Below are positions 14,267 to 20,154 of a DNA stretch of 64,000 bases, in pieces (within the stretch, counting starts at the first letter, position 1; each line of letters opens with the position of its first letter). The stretch comes from an uncultured Actinomycetota bacterium (GTDB lineage: Bacteria; Actinomycetota; Actinomycetes; Propionibacteriales; Nocardioidaceae): NCBI GenBank assembly GCA_963850965.1, contig CAWKMT010000005.1, positions 96,926-160,925 of the forward strand, written 5' to 3'. A program made the position numbers and the translations under genes. The notes below the pieces were generated by a model that was not told the DNA's origin, ran no database searches, and saw only the letters and a program-made list of their open reading frames with translations.

Positions 14267-15096
14267 AATCGCACGGCATCACCGGGCCGGAGCTGCGCGC
14301 ACTGCCACAGGTCCTCCTCGTGCACGACCCCGAGCACGGGGTAGCCCCCGGTCGTCGGGTGGTCGGCGAGGAAGACCACGGGCTCCCCGGCCGGCGGCAC
14401 CTGCACCGCGCCGAGCACCATGCCCGCACTGGGCAGCTGGTCGTGACGAGCCCGTTCGAGTCGCGGGCCGGAGAGCCGCATCCCGACGCGGTTGGAGTCG
14501 GCGGCCACGACGTACGACGCCCGGCACAGGGTGTCGAGGGCTCCCGGGGCGAACCACTCGGTGTGCGGTCCCGGCGTGAGTCGCAGGGGTCCGAGCGTCG
14601 GTGGTCGAGGCGTGTCGTGGGGCTGCGGCTGGCGTCGTGGCGGTCCCACCGGGAGCACGGCCCCGGCCTCGACCCGCGGCGGCCCCACCCAGGCCAGGGT
14701 GTCGGTCGAGCGCGACCCGAGCACCGGATCCACGTCGATGCCGCCGGCGACCGCGACGTAGGTGCGCACCCCGACCTCCGGAGCCGCCAGTCGCAGGGTG
14801 GCGCCGGCCGGCAGCCACTGTGCGCTCCCGTGGCCGCTCGGTCTCTCGGCGATCCAGACCCGGCACCGGGCGCCGGTCACGGCCACCCAGTGCCCCTCCC
14901 GGGCGGTCAGCGACAGGCCGCCGAGGGTCACCTCGAGGACCGCGCACGCCACGTCGTTGCCGACCAGCCGGTTCGCGAGCGCAGCCGCAGGGGCGTCCAG
15001 GGCACCTGCCCTGGGTACGCCGAGGTGCGCCAGCCCGCGTCGCCCCTGGTCCTGGACCGTGGTCAGACTCCCCGCCTCCAACACGACCAGCGTCAT
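14185..15096 (-). CDS. pxpC: 5-oxoprolinase subunit C (biotin-dependent carboxyltransferase-like)
   Basis: TTVQDQGR, GVPRAGALD, ANRLVGN, LGSRSTD, SNRVGMRL, GAVQVPP, DHPTTGGYP. Confidence 0.9.
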   Translation of the reverse strand: MTLVVLEAGSLTTVQDQGRRGLAHLGVPRAGALDAPAAALANRLVGNDVACAVLEVTLGGLSLTAREGHWVAVTGARCRVWIAERPSGHGSAQWLPAGATLRLAAPEVGVRTYVAVAGGIDVDPVLGSRSTDTLAWVGPPRVEAGAVLPVGPPRRQPQPHDTPRPPTLGPLRLTPGPHTEWFAPGALDTLCRASYVVAADSNRVGMRLSGPRLERARHDQLPSAGMVLGAVQVPPAGEPVVFLADHPTTGGYPVLGVVHEEDLWQCAQLRPGDAVRFQLAGSGPGSDSAAGGSQALSAGSSEG

Positions 15097-15698
15097 CGCG
15101 GCACGAACCTCACGCGGGTGCCCGGCGCCAGCAGGGCCGGGGAGTCGCGGCTCGCGTCCCAGAGGGTGACCTCTGCGGTGCCCAGGATCTGCCACCCGCC
15201 CGGGGACGCCGAGGGGTAGACCGCGCACCACTCCCCTGCCAGCGCCACGGATCCGGCCGGCACCCGAGCCCGCGGCGAGTCGAGGCGTGGCACGTGCAGC
15301 TCGACCGGCAGGCCGGTGAGGTAGGCGAAGCCGGGCGCGAAGCCGCAGAACGCCGAGACGTACTCGACGCCCGCGTGCCTGGCCACTGCCTCGTCCCGGT
15401 CGACGCCCCACTGCTGCGCGACGCGGGTCAGGTCGGGTCCGTCGTACCGGACCGGGATCTCGACGAGGTCGCCGGCCCCGTCGAGATCCTCGTCAGGGGC
15501 CCAGGCCTCGAGGCGACCCTGCAGCGCGGCGAGATCCCCCACTCCGTCGAACAGGACGGTCCGGGCGCCCGGAACGATCTCCTCGACAGGCAGGTCGGCG
15601 GGCAGGGCCTGGCGGGCCCAGTGCGCCAACGCGAGCGCGGTCGCGGTGTCCTCGGTCTCGACCAGCAGCGCACGTCGGCCGACTGCGATGGAATGCAT
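15093..15698 (-). CDS. pxpB: 5-oxoprolinase subunit B
   Basis: IPVRYDGPDL, FCGFAPGFAYL, VPAGSVALAG, YPSASPGGWQILG; ATGA coupling to pxpC; own CAGACT-N7-ATG. Confidence 0.9.
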   Translation of the reverse strand: MHSIAVGRRALLVETEDTATALALAHWARQALPADLPVEEIVPGARTVLFDGVGDLAALQGRLEAWAPDEDLDGAGDLVEIPVRYDGPDLTRVAQQWGVDRDEAVARHAGVEYVSAFCGFAPGFAYLTGLPVELHVPRLDSPRARVPAGSVALAGEWCAVYPSASPGGWQILGTAEVTLWDASRDSPALLAPGTRVRFVPR

Positions 15699-15724
15699 GG
15701 CGCCCAGTCTGCCGGGAAATGGAC

Positions 15725-15761
15725 GAAGGGCTCCTGGCGGTATGAGCGTCAGGAGCCCTTC
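15725..15761. terminator. Hairpin terminator between pxpA and pxpB
   Basis: 12-bp perfect stem GAAGGGCTCCTG...CAGGAGCCCTTC. Confidence 0.7.
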
Positions 15762-15925
15762 AGGGCGACCGGTTCAGGTGACGTCCCGGTCCACCGGACT
15801 CACCCTCCGACCCCGCCGTCCCCGTCACCGGGCCGACGCGGCGAGTCTCCTCGCCGGGTGGATCTTCAAGCCTGTCCGATCCCCGTCTCGCTGCCAGCCG
15901 TGAGGCCGACCGAGAGTCGGTAGGG
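15725..15925 (-). ncRNA. Candidate ~200-nt structured small RNA (unassigned)
   Basis: Non-coding; upstream TTGCGG-N18-TAGAAC near-promoter; stems CCGAC/GTCGG, CGGCGAG-GAGA-CTCGCCG and GGTGACG/CGTCACC; ends in a terminator. Confidence 0.4.
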
Positions 15926-15990
15926 AGAGTTCTACGCGCCTTCCGGCAGGGTCCGCAAGGGGTTGGCCGACGTCGGCGCGACATTCCTCC

Positions 15991-16077
15991 GGTCCCACAG
16001 GATGGTCCACAGATCCGTCCCACTCATCCACAGGAATCGGGCGATCTCCACAGGGACCCGACTGGACCTGTGGAGGA
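15991..16077. repeat. Cluster of CCACAG / DnaA-box-like 9-mers
   Basis: GGTCCCACA 15991, TGGTCCACA 16003, TCATCCACA 16024, ATCTCCACA 16044, inverted TGTGGAGGA 16069. Confidence 0.45.
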
Positions 16078-16103
16078 GCGGTCCACGCCTCTCAGGGGCT
16101 CGC

Positions 16104-16802
16104 TCAGAGTCCGCGCAGCACGTGGCCGGCCGCCTCGAGCGCCCGACGTACGGCGGTGGCGGCCTCGACCGCGCCGGGATGATCACCGTGCACGCACAGC
16201 GAGTCGACCCGGCGACCCGCGGCGAGCTCGACCGCGCGGGCGGCGATGCGGGCACGGTCGGTGAGCACCGCACCCTCGGTGCCGCGCGGCAGCAGCCGGC
16301 CGTCGTCGGTGTAGCCACGGTCCGGGAAGCCCTCGCGCAGCGCGCGTCGGCCCGCCAGGACCGCCAGCCGGAGCAGGGCCCCGCCGGGGAGCCCGAGGAC
16401 CGGCAGGTCGGCAGAGCCCGCCAGCACGGCGGCCGCCTGGACCTCGTCGTCGAGGACGCGGTGGTAGAGCGCGCCGTGGGGTTTGACGTAGCGCACCGCG
16501 GTCCCGGCACCGCGGGCGATCTCGGAGAGGAGCCCCACCTGGTCGGCCACCTGCTCACGCAGCGTGTCCGCAGCGACGTCGTGGGCCACCCGGCCGAAGT
16601 TCTCGCGGTCGGCGTAGGAGACCTGCGCCCCCACCGAGACCCCGAGCCGGGCCGCCTCGGCGCACACCGAGCGCATGATGGCGGCGCTGCCGGCGTGGTA
16701 GCCACAGGCGACGTTCGCACTCGTCACGATGGCCAGGAGCGCCGTGTCGTCGGTGATCTCCTCGCCGAGGTCGGCGTTGAGGTCGAGGGGGACGGCGGGC
16801 AT
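16104..16802 (-). CDS. pxpA: 5-oxoprolinase subunit A (LamB/YcsF)
   Basis: DLNADLGE, SANVACGYHAG, YVKPHGALY, EGFPDRGY, SLCVHGD; TAGCGT-N6-ATG. Confidence 0.92.
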   Translation of the reverse strand: MPAVPLDLNADLGEEITDDTALLAIVTSANVACGYHAGSAAIMRSVCAEAARLGVSVGAQVSYADRENFGRVAHDVAADTLREQVADQVGLLSEIARGAGTAVRYVKPHGALYHRVLDDEVQAAAVLAGSADLPVLGLPGGALLRLAVLAGRRALREGFPDRGYTDDGRLLPRGTEGAVLTDRARIAARAVELAAGRRVDSLCVHGDHPGAVEAATAVRRALEAAGHVLRGL

Positions 16803-16835
16803 GGCCCGACGCTACCGAAGATAGGGTTCCCGGCC

Positions 16836-19037
16836 ATGGAGTCCTCCGCTCGACCGCCCCTCGCCGATCGTCGACCCGTCACCCGCGAGTACCACGGCGA
16901 AGCGCGCATCGACGACTACGACTGGCTCCGTGACAAGGAGTCACCCGAGGTGACGGCCCACCTCGAGGCCGAGAACGCCCACACCCAGGAGCGCACCGCG
17001 CACCTGTCCGGGCTGCGCCAGCAGATCTTCGACGAGATCAAGGCCCGCACCCTCGAGACCGACCTGTCGGTGCCCACCCGCAACCGCGGCCACTGGTACT
17101 ACGGACGTTCCTTCGAGGGTCGCGAGTACGGCGCCAGCTGCCGCGTCCCGATCCGCGGCGAGGACGACTGGACTCCCCCGCACCCCGCCGAGGACTGCTC
17201 GCCCGACGAGCCGGCGCTGCCCGGCGAGGAGCTGCTGCTCGACCTGAACACCCTCGCCGAGGGCCACGAGTTCTTCTCGCTCGGCGGCTCCTCGATCAGT
17301 CTCGACGGCACCCGGCTCGCCTACTCGACCGACGTCGTCGGCGACGAGCGCTACACGCTGCGGATCAAGGACCTCACCACCGGCCAGCTCCTCGACGACG
17401 AGCTCGTGGGCATCCTGGGCGGTGCCACCTGGGACCGCGCCGGCACCTGCCTCTACTACACGACGATGGACGAGTCCTGGCGTGCCGACAAGGTCTGGCG
17501 CCACCGCGTGGGCACTCCCCAGGCGGCCGATGTGCTCGTCTACGAGGAGGCCGACGCCCGCTTCTGGGTCGGCATCGGACGCAGCCGCAGCGACCGGTTC
17601 CTCATGATCGCGTCGGGCTCCAAGACCACCTCCGAGTACCGCTACCTCGACGTCGAGGCCCCGATGGCCGGCTTCCAGGTCTTCGCGCCCCGCGTCGAGG
17701 GGCTGGAGTACTCCCTCGACCACGCCGTCCTGGGCGGCCAGGACCGCTTCCTGGTCCTGCACAACCACACCGGTCCCGACTTCGAGCTGGCGCTCGCCCC
17801 CGCCTCCCCCACCTCGCCGGAGCGGTGGGAGCCCCTGGTCCCCCACGACGCCAGCGTGCGGCTCGAGGACGTCGACGCCTTCGCCACCCACCTCGTGGTG
17901 CACCAGCGCAGCGAGGGCCTCACCCAGCTGCGCGTGCTCGAGCTGGGCGACCAGCCCGAGCAGCCCGTCACCGACGACTACCTCGTGGAGTTCGACCAGG
18001 AGATCTACACCGTGGGCTCGGGCGGCAACCCGGGGTTCCACCAGCCGGTGATCCGGCTGGGCTACACCTCGATGGCGGTGCCGTCCTCGGTCTACGACTA
18101 CGACGTGCGCACCCGCGAGCTGACCCTGCTCCGACGTGCCCCCGTGCTGGGCGGCTACGACCCGAAGGACTACGAGGAGCACCGGCTCTGGGCTCCCAGC
18201 ACCGACGGCGTCCAGGTGCCGATCTCGATCGTCTGCCGGCGTGGTGCCCGCACCGAGGGTGAGCCGATCCCGGTCCTGCTCTACGGCTACGGCGCCTACG
18301 AGGCCTCGATGGACCCGTACTTCTCCGTGGCCAGGCTCTCGTTGCTCGACCGGGGCGCGGGCTTCGCGATCGCGCACGTGCGCGGCGGCGGAGAGATGGG
18401 GCGGCGCTGGTACGACGACGGCAAGCTCTTCCACAAGCAGAACTCCTTCTCGGACTTCATCGCCTGCGCTCGGCACCTCATCGCCACCGGCTGGACCACG
18501 CCCGACCATCTCGTGGCCGAGGGCGCGAGCGCGGGCGGCCTGCTGATGGGGGCCGTGGTCAACCAGGCTCCCCAGCTCTTCGGCGGGGTCGTGGCCGGCG
18601 TCCCGTTCGTCGACACGCTCACCTCGATGCTCGACGCCACGCTCCCCCTGACCGTCACCGAGTACGACGAGTGGGGCAACCCCGAGGCCGACCCCTCGGT
18701 CTATGCGTGCATCCGTGGCTACGCGCCGTACGACAACGTGATCGCGATGGACTACCCGCCGATCCTCGCCGAGACCTCCCTGCACGACACCCGGGTCCTC
18801 TACGTGGAGCCAGCCAAGTGGATCGCCAAGCTGCGCGCCACCGCGATCGGGCGACGCGACTTCCTGCTCCGCACCGAGATGTCGGGAGGGCACGGCGGGG
18901 TCTCGGGACGCTACAAGTCCTGGCACGACCGGGCCTTCACCCTGGCCTGGATCCTGGAGCGGATGGGCCTCGCCGAGCAGGCGCCCGGGGCGTCCCCGGC
19001 ACCCGTCGAGGAGTCCCCCGCGAGCCCGCTGCCCTGA
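16836..19037 (+). CDS. ptrB: Oligopeptidase B (S9A family)
   Basis: DDYDWLRD N-terminus, beta-propeller region, catalytic GASAGG, HDTRV and GGHGG. Confidence 0.9.
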   Translation: MESSARPPLADRRPVTREYHGEARIDDYDWLRDKESPEVTAHLEAENAHTQERTAHLSGLRQQIFDEIKARTLETDLSVPTRNRGHWYYGRSFEGREYGASCRVPIRGEDDWTPPHPAEDCSPDEPALPGEELLLDLNTLAEGHEFFSLGGSSISLDGTRLAYSTDVVGDERYTLRIKDLTTGQLLDDELVGILGGATWDRAGTCLYYTTMDESWRADKVWRHRVGTPQAADVLVYEEADARFWVGIGRSRSDRFLMIASGSKTTSEYRYLDVEAPMAGFQVFAPRVEGLEYSLDHAVLGGQDRFLVLHNHTGPDFELALAPASPTSPERWEPLVPHDASVRLEDVDAFATHLVVHQRSEGLTQLRVLELGDQPEQPVTDDYLVEFDQEIYTVGSGGNPGFHQPVIRLGYTSMAVPSSVYDYDVRTRELTLLRRAPVLGGYDPKDYEEHRLWAPSTDGVQVPISIVCRRGARTEGEPIPVLLYGYGAYEASMDPYFSVARLSLLDRGAGFAIAHVRGGGEMGRRWYDDGKLFHKQNSFSDFIACARHLIATGWTTPDHLVAEGASAGGLLMGAVVNQAPQLFGGVVAGVPFVDTLTSMLDATLPLTVTEYDEWGNPEADPSVYACIRGYAPYDNVIAMDYPPILAETSLHDTRVLYVEPAKWIAKLRATAIGRRDFLLRTEMSGGHGGVSGRYKSWHDRAFTLAWILERMGLAEQAPGASPAPVEESPASPLP

Positions 19038-19146: not shown

Positions 19147-19200
19147 GGACTAGACGTGCAGCGTTGCTCCGGCAGCGCCGAGGACAGAGGAGGGCGGCCC

Positions 19201-20154
19201 ATGGCTACACGCACCGCAACCAGGACCCGCGAGAGCGAGGGCCGAGACAGCGTCGGTCTCTACCTCGACGAGATCGCGCGCACGCCCCTTCTCGACGCTG
19301 CCACCGAGGTCGAGCTCTCCAAGACGATCGAGGCCGGCCTGATGGCTGCCGCCCTCCTCGCCGAGGGCCGGGTCGGTCGCCGCAAGGGCGGGGCGCCGAT
19401 GAGCGCCACCCAGGCCGAGCTCGAGTGGCTGGCCGAGGAGGGTGAGCGTGCAGTCCAGACGTTCATCACCGCCAACCTCCGCCTGGTCGTCTCGATCGCG
19501 CGCAAGTACGGCCGCGCCCAGATGCCGATGCTCGACCTGATCCAGGAGGGCAACACCGGCCTGATCCGTGCGGTCGAGAAGTTCGACTACACCAAGGGCT
19601 ACAAGTTCTCGACCTACGCCACCTGGTGGGTGCGCCAGGCGATCACCCGCGGCATCGCGCAGCAGGCCCGCGTCGTACGCCTGCCCGTGCACGTGGTCGA
19701 GGAGCTCAACCAGGTCGGCGGCGCCCGTCGTACCCTCGAGCGCCAGCTCGGTCGCAGCCCCGACCCGCAGGAGATCGCCGCCGAGCTCGGCCTGGACGTC
19801 GACCGGGTCCTCGACCTGATGGCGTGGGGCCGCGAACACGTCAGCCTCGACTCCCCGGTCGACGAGGACGGCGACACCTCGCTCGGCGACCTGATGGCCC
19901 AGCAGACGACCCCCGGCCCGGACCTGTCGGTCCTCGACGTCGAGGCCCGCGACCGGCTCAACCTCCTGGTCGACCACCTCGACCCGCGCTCCGCCGACAT
20001 CATCCGCTCGCGCTACGGCCTGGTCGACGGCCGCCAGCACAAGCTGGCCGACATCGGCGTCAAGCACGGCATCTCCGCCGAGCGGGTCCGCCAGCTCGAG
20101 CGGGAGGCCCTGCAGAAGCTCCGTCGGGTCGCCGACCCGGATCTGGCTGCCTGA
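19201..20154 (+). CDS. hrdD: Group 2 sigma-70 factor (HrdD/SigB-like)
   Basis: [54 protein letters not shown]; lacks region 1.1. Confidence 0.8.
   Translation: MATRTATRTRESEGRDSVGLYLDEIARTPLLDAATEVELSKTIEAGLMAAALLAEGRVGRRKGGAPMSATQAELEWLAEEGERAVQTFITANLRLVVSIARKYGRAQMPMLDLIQEGNTGLIRAVEKFDYTKGYKFSTYATWWVRQAITRGIAQQARVVRLPVHVVEELNQVGGARRTLERQLGRSPDPQEIAAELGLDVDRVLDLMAWGREHVSLDSPVDEDGDTSLGDLMAQQTTPGPDLSVLDVEARDRLNLLVDHLDPRSADIIRSRYGLVDGRQHKLADIGVKHGISAERVRQLEREALQKLRRVADPDLAA

Follow-up and report, generated by a model that had tools for sequence, protein, structure and literature searches.

A probable structured RNA gene with a predicted kissing-loop fold and putative DnaA boxes in the pxpA-pxpB interval of a Nocardioidaceae genome

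The stretch of DNA analysed here, a window of 64,000 nucleotides from an uncultured actinobacterium of the family Nocardioidaceae (contig CAWKMT010000005.1, positions 96,926 to 160,925), contains a 405-bp gap (window positions 15699-16103) between the genes pxpA and pxpB, both of which lie on the minus strand, with pxpC following pxpB. With high confidence, this gap holds a genuine structured RNA gene, likewise on the minus strand, the predicted mature product of which is about 206 nt long (15716..15921) and extends from a conserved A, 8 nt past a TAGAAC hexamer, to the U-run after a terminal hairpin, the positions of both ends being predictions. To judge from its sequence and fold, the RNA represents a new family of structured RNA, with no match among those described. 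As for what kind of gene this is, we consider it probable, taking the statement as a whole, that it is a stand-alone RNA gene that is controlled by DnaA and acts in trans.

Folded as a single sequence, the RNA is only modestly unusual (minimum free energy z = -2.3, modest alone), and a simple scan of the gap for promoters and terminators called neither, so that the case for the gene rests on comparison with other sequences. A BLAST search with the gap DNA finds sequence of 66-82% identity in 29 of the 36 genomes of the same genus, and more than once in several of these. A covariance model of 214 positions (R1), built from a MAFFT alignment of 82 copies with pairwise identities below 90% (A2), matches the window at 15703-15934 (minus strand) with 183.7 bits (E 1e-54). 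Within A2, 91.2% of cells are paired versus 80.3% in shuffled alignments, 48 of the 68 pairs show compensatory changes, and the covariation score is 0.335 versus 0.153 when shuffled, a value that none of 500 shuffles reaches, while partners slid out of register give at most 0.08. The corresponding values for a second alignment (A3) of 109 R1-aligned matches, which include Nocardioides, Kribbella, Microlunatus and other taxa, are higher still (92.5% of cells paired versus 73.1% shuffled; 58 of 66 pairs compensatory; covariation score 0.532 versus 0.185, with slid controls at or below 0.088), although these shuffle statistics overstate the support because A3 consists of related sequences fitted to the model, and the MAFFT-based A2 result is the more conservative of the two. 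The excess of G·U (7.1% of paired cells) over A·C (1.8%) places the RNA on the minus strand of the window. Furthermore, the two copies of the RNA in this genome differ by 14 compensatory pairs, and covariation of the fold extends over at least three families of the Propionibacteriales.

A preliminary description of this DNA, made from the window sequence, had proposed a self-contained structured RNA of about 200 nt on the minus strand in a gap without a credible open reading frame. Both parts of this proposal hold: the promoter and the hairpin are kept in a paralogue and in about 100 homologues; the fold covaries; Pfam has no match for either of the two minus-strand open reading frames of the gap (87 and 68 aa); and only 8% of the indels among homologues are multiples of three, which marks the region as non-coding. 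The individual motifs that it listed on the minus strand (TTGCGG-N18-TAGAAC, a hairpin with a GAGA loop, a G-rich core and CAGACT-N7-ATG) are likewise all present. It had also proposed conservation of sequence and structure in relatives as a check, and the 29 of 36 genomes of the genus and 67 of 151 of the order that carry matches, together with the strong covariation, supply it. That description made no mention of a second copy, of copies arranged in tandem, of the kissing loop, of the invariance of the CUCAUAC loop or of a box array at 15994-16074, which lies outside the region it covered.

The conserved 5' A and the hairpin tail are both visible in alignment A2, and the parts between them are given here in minus-strand order. 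The 5' hairpin H1 (15883..15920), in which 9 of 10 pairs show compensatory changes, differs in length between species and carries an insertion in the window copy. In the core domain (15792..15881), H2 encloses a purine-rich internal loop that is small (about 9 nt on each side) as well as H3, which bears the two hairpins Pa and Pb. H2 pairs GAUCGGAC (15881-15874) with GUCCGGUG (15799-15792), for which A2 has GAUCGGAC with GUCCGRUC, and H3 pairs GAUCC (15864-15860) with GGGUC (15813-15809). Both covary, as do the core helices 2-4 in A2 and A3; the pair 124:243, for example, is AU 44 times and GC 35 times. A local GGAUC/GAUCC hairpin was dropped since the long-range helices H2 and H3 covary instead, and a pairing of CUCUCC, which follows TAGAAC and probably lies upstream of the transcription start, with GGAG of the internal loop is not kept throughout (L012, for one, lacks it) and is not claimed. 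Hairpin Pa (15839..15856; CGGCGAG-GAGA-CUCGCCG) is paired in 97% of cells, with compensatory changes in six of seven pairs, and its loop, GAGA in the window copy, is of the GNRA or UUCG type in relatives. In Pb (15814..15838), 85% of cells are paired and all eight stem pairs have changed on both sides; a G-rich run, GGGGACGGCGGGGUCGGAGGG, occupies 15823-15803 of the minus strand. Hairpin P5 (15767..15791) follows the core and is 97.8% paired, with compensatory changes in all six of its pairs.

The nearly invariant 7-nt loop of Pb, GGUGACG (15829-15823), is complementary over its whole length to CGUCACC (15783-15777) in the loop of P5. These seven pairs are formed in 97.7% of cells, five of the seven show double changes, and rare variants altered on both sides (GAUGACG/CGUCAUC, GGUGACA/UGUCACC, GGUGAUG/CAUCACC and GGUGGUG/GCCACC) also occur, a pattern that we read as a predicted kissing-loop tertiary contact. 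The RNA is closed by a GC-rich terminal hairpin of 15 pairs, T (15725..15761), the stem of which is paired in 96-99% of cells, with compensatory changes in 13 of the 15 pairs. It is followed by the tail GUCCAUUUCC; the conserved 3' tail at 15714..15724 is GUCCAUUUCCC, the family consensus of which in A2 is CACCYAUUUCC. Where the preliminary description spoke of a strong terminator, the stem is indeed strong, but the tail offers three U's only, 5-6 nt past the stem, and fails the scan's canonical terminator rule.

Transcription of the RNA is ascribed to a sigma-A-type promoter formed by the -35-like hexamer TTGCGG (15953..15958, minus strand) and the -10-like hexamer TAGAAC (15929..15934, minus strand), the latter nearly invariant at the start of A2. 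All 92 unique promoter-bearing copies have the form cccTTGcGc-N18-TAGAAc with the 18-nt spacer fixed, and the -10 element reads TAGAAAT in Kribbella and in distant relatives. An AATGTC motif stands upstream (15985-15980, minus strand), and beyond it lies a DnaA-type box array (15994..16074, minus strand) comprising three direct TGTGGA boxes (16052-16047, 16032-16027 and 16011-16006), a fourth direct box, TGTGGG (15999-15994), and one inverted box (16074-16069). Every promoter-bearing copy is preceded by three to five such CTGTGGA(S)GA boxes (consensus C-TGTGGA-S-G-A), and upstream boxes of the form TGTG[GC][AG] average 3.17 per 175 nt against a background of 0.18, in a single orientation. The distances between boxes show a sharp maximum at 21 bp and a lesser one at 12 bp, and their registers are fixed at -77, -98 and -119 (or -66, -88 and -109) from the -10 element.

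The same type of box is found in the dnaA-dnaN intergenic region of this genome, that is, in oriC (CTGTGGATGA, CTGTGGAGGA, TGTGCAC and TCATCCACAGGA), so that several boxes of the array match the genome's own oriC consensus, and only three places genome-wide hold at least four TCCACA within 300 bp, the window array being one of them. Because the boxes are of the oriC type and rare in the genome, they are read as putative DnaA boxes, a judgement drawn from sequence likeness, and control of the promoter by DnaA we regard as evenly poised. The two other clusters of at least four TCCACA/TGTGGA within 300 bp, at G000:C4:533513-533656 and G000:C6:78354-78495, are candidate members of a DnaA regulon; the former lies just upstream of a gene with an N-terminus that, by eye only, looks to be of the PolX/PHP type. 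Searches of the literature for a small RNA fronted by DnaA boxes, or for DnaA boxes together with a small RNA in Actinobacteria, found no description of either.

This genome contains exactly two copies of the RNA in the R1 search, scoring 183.7 and 174.9 bits. The second copy (G000:C4:504747-504952) is situated between a ynfA-like gene and a gene for a PlsC-type acyltransferase and repeats the whole architecture, with TGTGGA boxes, a CCCTTGCGC-N18-CATAGAAC promoter, a body like that of the first copy and a hairpin whose loop is identical. In relatives, the number per genome ranges from one to three, some copies standing in tandem, and the 110 arrays collected comprise 97 single, 4 double and 9 triple ones. 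In some relatives, two or three head-to-tail units lie between pxpA and pxpB, with a promoter on the first unit only; triple arrays in this position are seen at L011:1579-2216, L014:785-1668 and L020:1579-2459, where the boxes, too, are confined to the first unit and the later units begin directly after the preceding hairpin tail, an arrangement that implies read-through and processing.

Across the order, full-length matches occur in 67 of 151 genomes. The window's own family accounts for 20 of 44 genomes, a further family (f3) for 41 of 44, including its Kribbella genus (40 of 43 genomes, with a single copy each), and the Propionibacteriaceae, including Microlunatus, for 4 of 44; a fifth family has none in 15. 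A pattern scan of named genomes finds the RNA in Nocardioides species and in metagenome-assembled genomes (MAGs) of the Nocardioidaceae; two pattern scans failed to bring up Kribbella flavida. Full-length matches are also present on MAG contigs from Propioniciclava, Propionibacteriaceae and Dermatophilaceae, and on one labelled Acidimicrobiales (L084, JAAZBK010000347.1; 84 bits), and a contig labelled Streptomyces sp. SID13031 (L277, NZ_JAAGLV010000032.1) carries a Kribbella-type copy; in these last two cases mislabelling or mis-binning is possible. Matches of the first pattern scan outside the Actinobacteria (Citrobacter, Halomarina and others) lie inside genes and were set aside as chance.

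Outside the order, the R1 matches are weak only (E 1e-12 to 1e-4). The distant relatives among them, from other families of the Actinomycetes (L187-L199), have in common a promoter, CCCTTGCG-N18-CTAGAAAT, with an upstream AAGAAnnTC motif, and keep the terminal CUCAUAC hairpin and sometimes the TGTGGA boxes, while their bodies, 120 to 280 nt long, are different. One of them retains a covarying GGUGAUG/CAUCAC pair. The family thus probably extends through the Actinomycetes in divergent form, and may be class-wide and modular.

Four other explanations compete with a stand-alone gene acting in trans; ranked by weight, they are a cis-acting attenuator, a 6S/Ms1-like binder of RNA polymerase, a site for DnaA titration and a mobile repeat. 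The first, which we hold to be unlikely though the strongest of the four, would make the RNA a leader of pxpBC and of the plsC-like gene, in which a ligand or factor acting on the kissing-loop fold decides whether transcription stops at the hairpin. A complex pseudoknotted fold with a terminator-like hairpin behind it is the usual build of a riboswitch, pxpB starts 18 nt past the hairpin tail, and the tandem arrays of two or three units before pxpB have their parallel in tandem riboswitches. The genomic contexts speak in part for the same explanation, as about 55 of the 110 arrays are placed between pxpA and pxpB and 9 before a plsC-like gene, and in one Propionibacteriaceae genome the RNA precedes pxpA-pxpB. 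However, 30 arrays face a convergent dinB gene, frequently preceded by a group-2 sigma factor or prolyl oligopeptidase gene in divergent orientation (10 further arrays have no identified context), and the Kribbella copies, present in 40 of 43 genomes, come after an ABC-2 transporter operon and face a convergent gene. A cis-regulator cannot explain these convergent cases, and an independent RNA gene is the common denominator of them all. The RNA is therefore not always found in a 5' untranslated region (UTR), and the genes downstream of it (pxpB, plsC, dinB, ThrE and others) are not a coherent set but functionally unrelated; moreover, no alternative anti-terminator pairing was found, and the terminal loop is invariant, unlike those of expression platforms. 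The preliminary description had itself argued that the RNA is no riboswitch of pxpB, a judgement that the convergent arrangements support.

Several observations nevertheless weigh against the reading of a stand-alone, DnaA-controlled RNA that acts in trans. In both copies of this genome, a co-directional gene (pxpB and the plsC-like gene, respectively) starts 18 to about 55 nt past the hairpin, and approximately 60% of the Nocardioides arrays precede pxpB or plsC, so that a secondary cis role by read-through is possible. Transcription and the 5' and 3' ends are predictions, the U-tract is weak and the final C of the -10 element (TAGAAC) is unusual for sigma-A. To this is added the inflation of the A3 statistics described above. 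The assignment to DnaA follows from likeness to the oriC boxes only, and another factor that binds TGTGGA would fit equally.

The 7-nt loop of the terminal hairpin, CUCAUAC (15746-15740), is invariant in all 82 non-redundant copies as well as in the distant relatives, and has the form of a tRNA anticodon loop, with C32, U33, CAU, A37 and C38. The usual loop of tRNA-Met, CUCAUAA, is one base away. The 3.6-Mb genome has only 20 instances of the 7-mer, and at four of these CTCATAC sites it forms the loop of a hairpin in which 11 or all of 12 stem positions pair. These four are the two copies of the RNA and two hairpins at gene ends (G000:C4:8916 and G000:C5:562148, both on the minus strand), one of which also has a similar CGUCCUUUCUAUCC tail. 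The presence of so rare a loop on two mRNA-end hairpins suggests that the CUCAUAC hairpin is a shared recognition module rather than a mere terminator. Identity with the TRIT terminator motif was rejected, since TRIT is palindromic and restricted to Mycobacterium (PMC3152330). A literature search on CUCAUAC gave nothing relevant. In this genome, sites complementary to the loop (GUAUGAG) frequently fall on candidate start codons, but a 7-nt match in a single genome is too weak to build upon.

In the mechanism that we propose, DnaA would set transcription through the phased boxes, so that the output of RNA would follow replication-initiator status, and the terminal hairpin would end the transcript, stabilise it or both. 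The RNA would then act in trans, most likely as a protein-binding or decoy RNA by way of its invariant loops. Recognition by a factor, rather than a simple antisense seed, is indicated by the compact tertiary fold and by the CUCAUAC loop held in common with two mRNA-end hairpins, and tandem amplification, as in decoy RNAs, points the same way; even so, trans-acting protein binding is a tentative assignment, which we hold with less than even confidence. As to the neighbouring genes, pxpBC would be expressed from a leaderless-type -10 of their own (CAGACT) or by read-through. A more far-reaching version, which we think improbable, would place the RNA first in a hitherto unrecognised class of structured RNAs that is spread across the Actinomycetes and controlled by DnaA. 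The CUCAUAC hairpin, with CAU in a canonical 7-nt Y-U-NNN-R-N loop, would be a recognition module common to some mRNA 3' ends, and the RNA, amplified in tandem arrays, would titrate a hairpin-binding factor or a component of translation initiation. If true, replication-initiator status would be coupled to RNA stability or translation; on this version, the complementary GGUGACG and CGUCACC loops might also join separate molecules or tandem units into higher-order assemblies.

Searches against known families bear on the second rival. At the gathering scores of Rfam 15, nothing in the window matches; at E <= 10, the region 15600-16200 yields nothing relevant and no ydaO-yuaA (RF00379), so that the echo of the c-di-AMP riboswitch noted in the preliminary description finds no support; and at E <= 0.1, the paralogue, the Kribbella copies and the distant relatives give nothing. 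Membership of the 6S, 6C, raiA, ydaO and other Rfam 15 families is accordingly excluded for want of any covariance-model match, which agrees with the earlier failure to place the RNA in a known family. Ms1, another candidate, has been described with lengths of 220-245 nt from Nocardioides, Kribbella and Microlunatus, in synteny with a gene for a HAD-IB hydrolase ('inhibition of morphological differentiation') together with an oxidoreductase, glycoside hydrolase or Fic gene (PMC9130861). The flanks of the present RNA are pxpA/pxpB, ynfA/plsC, a sigma or prolyl oligopeptidase gene with dinB, and an ABC-2 transporter, none of them HAD-IB. Furthermore, the R1 search finds no match within 1.5 kb of the four HAD-IB genes of this genome, no HAD-IB gene is near any of 31 further loci of the RNA (those of Kribbella, Propionibacteriaceae and the distant, class-level relatives included), and none of the published Ms1 coordinates coincides with a match of this RNA (PMC9130861 supplement).

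This genome has, instead, a separate Ms1-like candidate region of 302 bp (G000:C2:768029-768330; L202:2281-2582) directly downstream of a HAD-IB gene (C2:767072-768028), with a promoter-like GAAATGTCAACCCTTGAT-N18-TAGACAT sequence, a terminal hairpin followed by UUUGCAU, no Rfam match and a size that fits the Nocardioides entries in the PMC9130861 supplement. The region is kept in 21 of 24 genomes of the genus, including three (G008, G011 and G016) that are without the RNA described here. The construct and primer sequences of Mycobacterium smegmatis Ms1 (PMC4191392 supplement) contain no CUCAUAC, and its 5' and 3' ends look unrelated. Identity with Ms1 is excluded by the absence of HAD-IB synteny and by the presence of this HAD-IB-linked region.

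As the second rival has it, the RNA would be of the 6S/Ms1 kind and sequester RNA polymerase, and several features have that character: the rod of H2, internal loop and H3 between 5' and 3' hairpins is similar to what has been published on Ms1 (PMC9130861), the promoter shares with that of the Ms1-like candidate of this genome a CCCTTG -35, a TAGA -10 and an upstream AATGTC, and structured small RNAs in several copies under strong promoters are typical of protein sponges. Such a role is nonetheless less likely still than that of a leader, as Rfam 6S does not match, HAD-IB synteny is missing at all loci checked, a separate Ms1-like region is present in 21 of 24 genomes of the genus, some without this RNA, the internal loop is small, and neither 6S nor Ms1 has anything that corresponds to the kissing loop.

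That the locus serves mainly as a DnaA-titrating box cluster of the datA/DBC type, its transcript being incidental, is very unlikely. The array is, to be sure, one of the three clusters of at least four TCCACA per 300 bp in the genome, its boxes are of the oriC type and their phasing is conserved; against this, the strong compensatory covariation of the body and the invariant loops show the RNA itself to be under selection, the second and third units of tandem arrays lack boxes, and a fixed register of boxes to promoter fits transcriptional control. Least probable is a repeat or mobile element (of the MITE or REP kind) with no function of its own, which the multiple copies, tandem arrays and several intergenic contexts might suggest, but which would have to be reconciled with just one to three arrays per genome at few syntenic positions, the absence of terminal inverted repeats and target duplications, the conserved promoter and regulator boxes, and covariation that reaches across families.

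The genes adjoining the RNA on the same strand are pxpA upstream (16104..16802, minus strand; LamB/YcsF family, Pfam PF03746, E 7e-67) and pxpB downstream (15093..15698, minus strand; carboxyltransferase C/D subdomains, Pfam PF02682, E 4e-54). The start codon of pxpB, an ATG at 15698, is separated from the predicted 3' end of the RNA by about 18 nt (window 15699-15716) and is preceded by CAGACT-N7, for which the close relative L013 has CAGACT-N6-ATG. Expression of pxpBC is thus either from a leaderless transcript starting at a weak -10 that overlaps the RNA tail, or dependent on read-through of the hairpin. On the plus strand, a 1024-aa open reading frame (window 15963-19037) has an artefactual 5' end that overlaps pxpA on the opposite strand and encodes a prolyl oligopeptidase only from about residue 298 on; a group-2 sigma-70 gene (window 19156-20154, plus strand) comes after it. 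This sigma/oligopeptidase neighbourhood is a conserved home of the RNA in relatives.

For annotation, these results mean that, in Nocardioides, an independent gene stands between pxpA and pxpBC. To our knowledge, Actinobacteria have neither Hfq nor ProQ, and hardly any of their structured non-coding RNAs have an established role. The present RNA, found in most Kribbella and many Nocardioides genomes and, as divergent relatives, in other families, is a well-defined new target for RNA biology, for which a covariance model and a seed of over 100 sequences are available. The phased oriC-type box array ahead of it suggests that replication control and riboregulation are linked, a connection of which we found no description in the literature, and the invariant anticodon-like loop points to an RNA-binding factor.

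Among known systems, the RNA resembles Ms1 (MTS2823/scr3559), which is also an actinobacterial structured small RNA of 200-300 nt with a sigma-A-like promoter and a terminal hairpin, is built as a rod with an internal loop and 5' and 3' hairpins, and is found in the same genera (Nocardioides, Kribbella and Microlunatus); it differs in having no HAD-IB, oxidoreductase or CpaE neighbour, and in its multiple and tandem copies, its kissing loop and its DnaA-type boxes. With the c-di-AMP riboswitch (ydaO-yuaA, RF00379), it has in common a G-rich, pseudoknotted fold of a kind (about 150 nt in that riboswitch) that is common in Actinobacteria, and a few similar short words, but it is not limited to 5' UTRs, and its helices and conserved nucleotides differ. 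The raiA motif, OLE, ROOL and GOLLD resemble it as conserved RNAs of orphan function with complex tertiary folds and loop-loop contacts, sometimes near unrelated genes; it is much smaller than OLE, ROOL and GOLLD, and differs from the whole group in its own regulated promoter and tandem copies. Its box array recalls datA of Escherichia coli, the DBCs of Bacillus subtilis and D78 of Streptomyces, in which three to five oriC-type boxes are clustered outside the origin, whereas here, unlike in those clusters and in DnaA-regulated promoters, the boxes follow a 21-bp phase, share one orientation and keep a register fixed to the promoter of a structured RNA. For the RNA now described, we know of no partner in this group, be it Hfq, CsrA or another. 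A further parallel is with LhrC1-5, Qrr1-5, RsmX/Y/Z and the CsrB-type decoys, which likewise come in several near-identical copies per genome, some of them in tandem, each with a conserved loop on its final hairpin and with all copies behind the binding sites of one regulator; those RNAs belong to another lineage and have no sequence relation to the present family, the body of which is far more structured and is predicted to be braced by a kissing loop.

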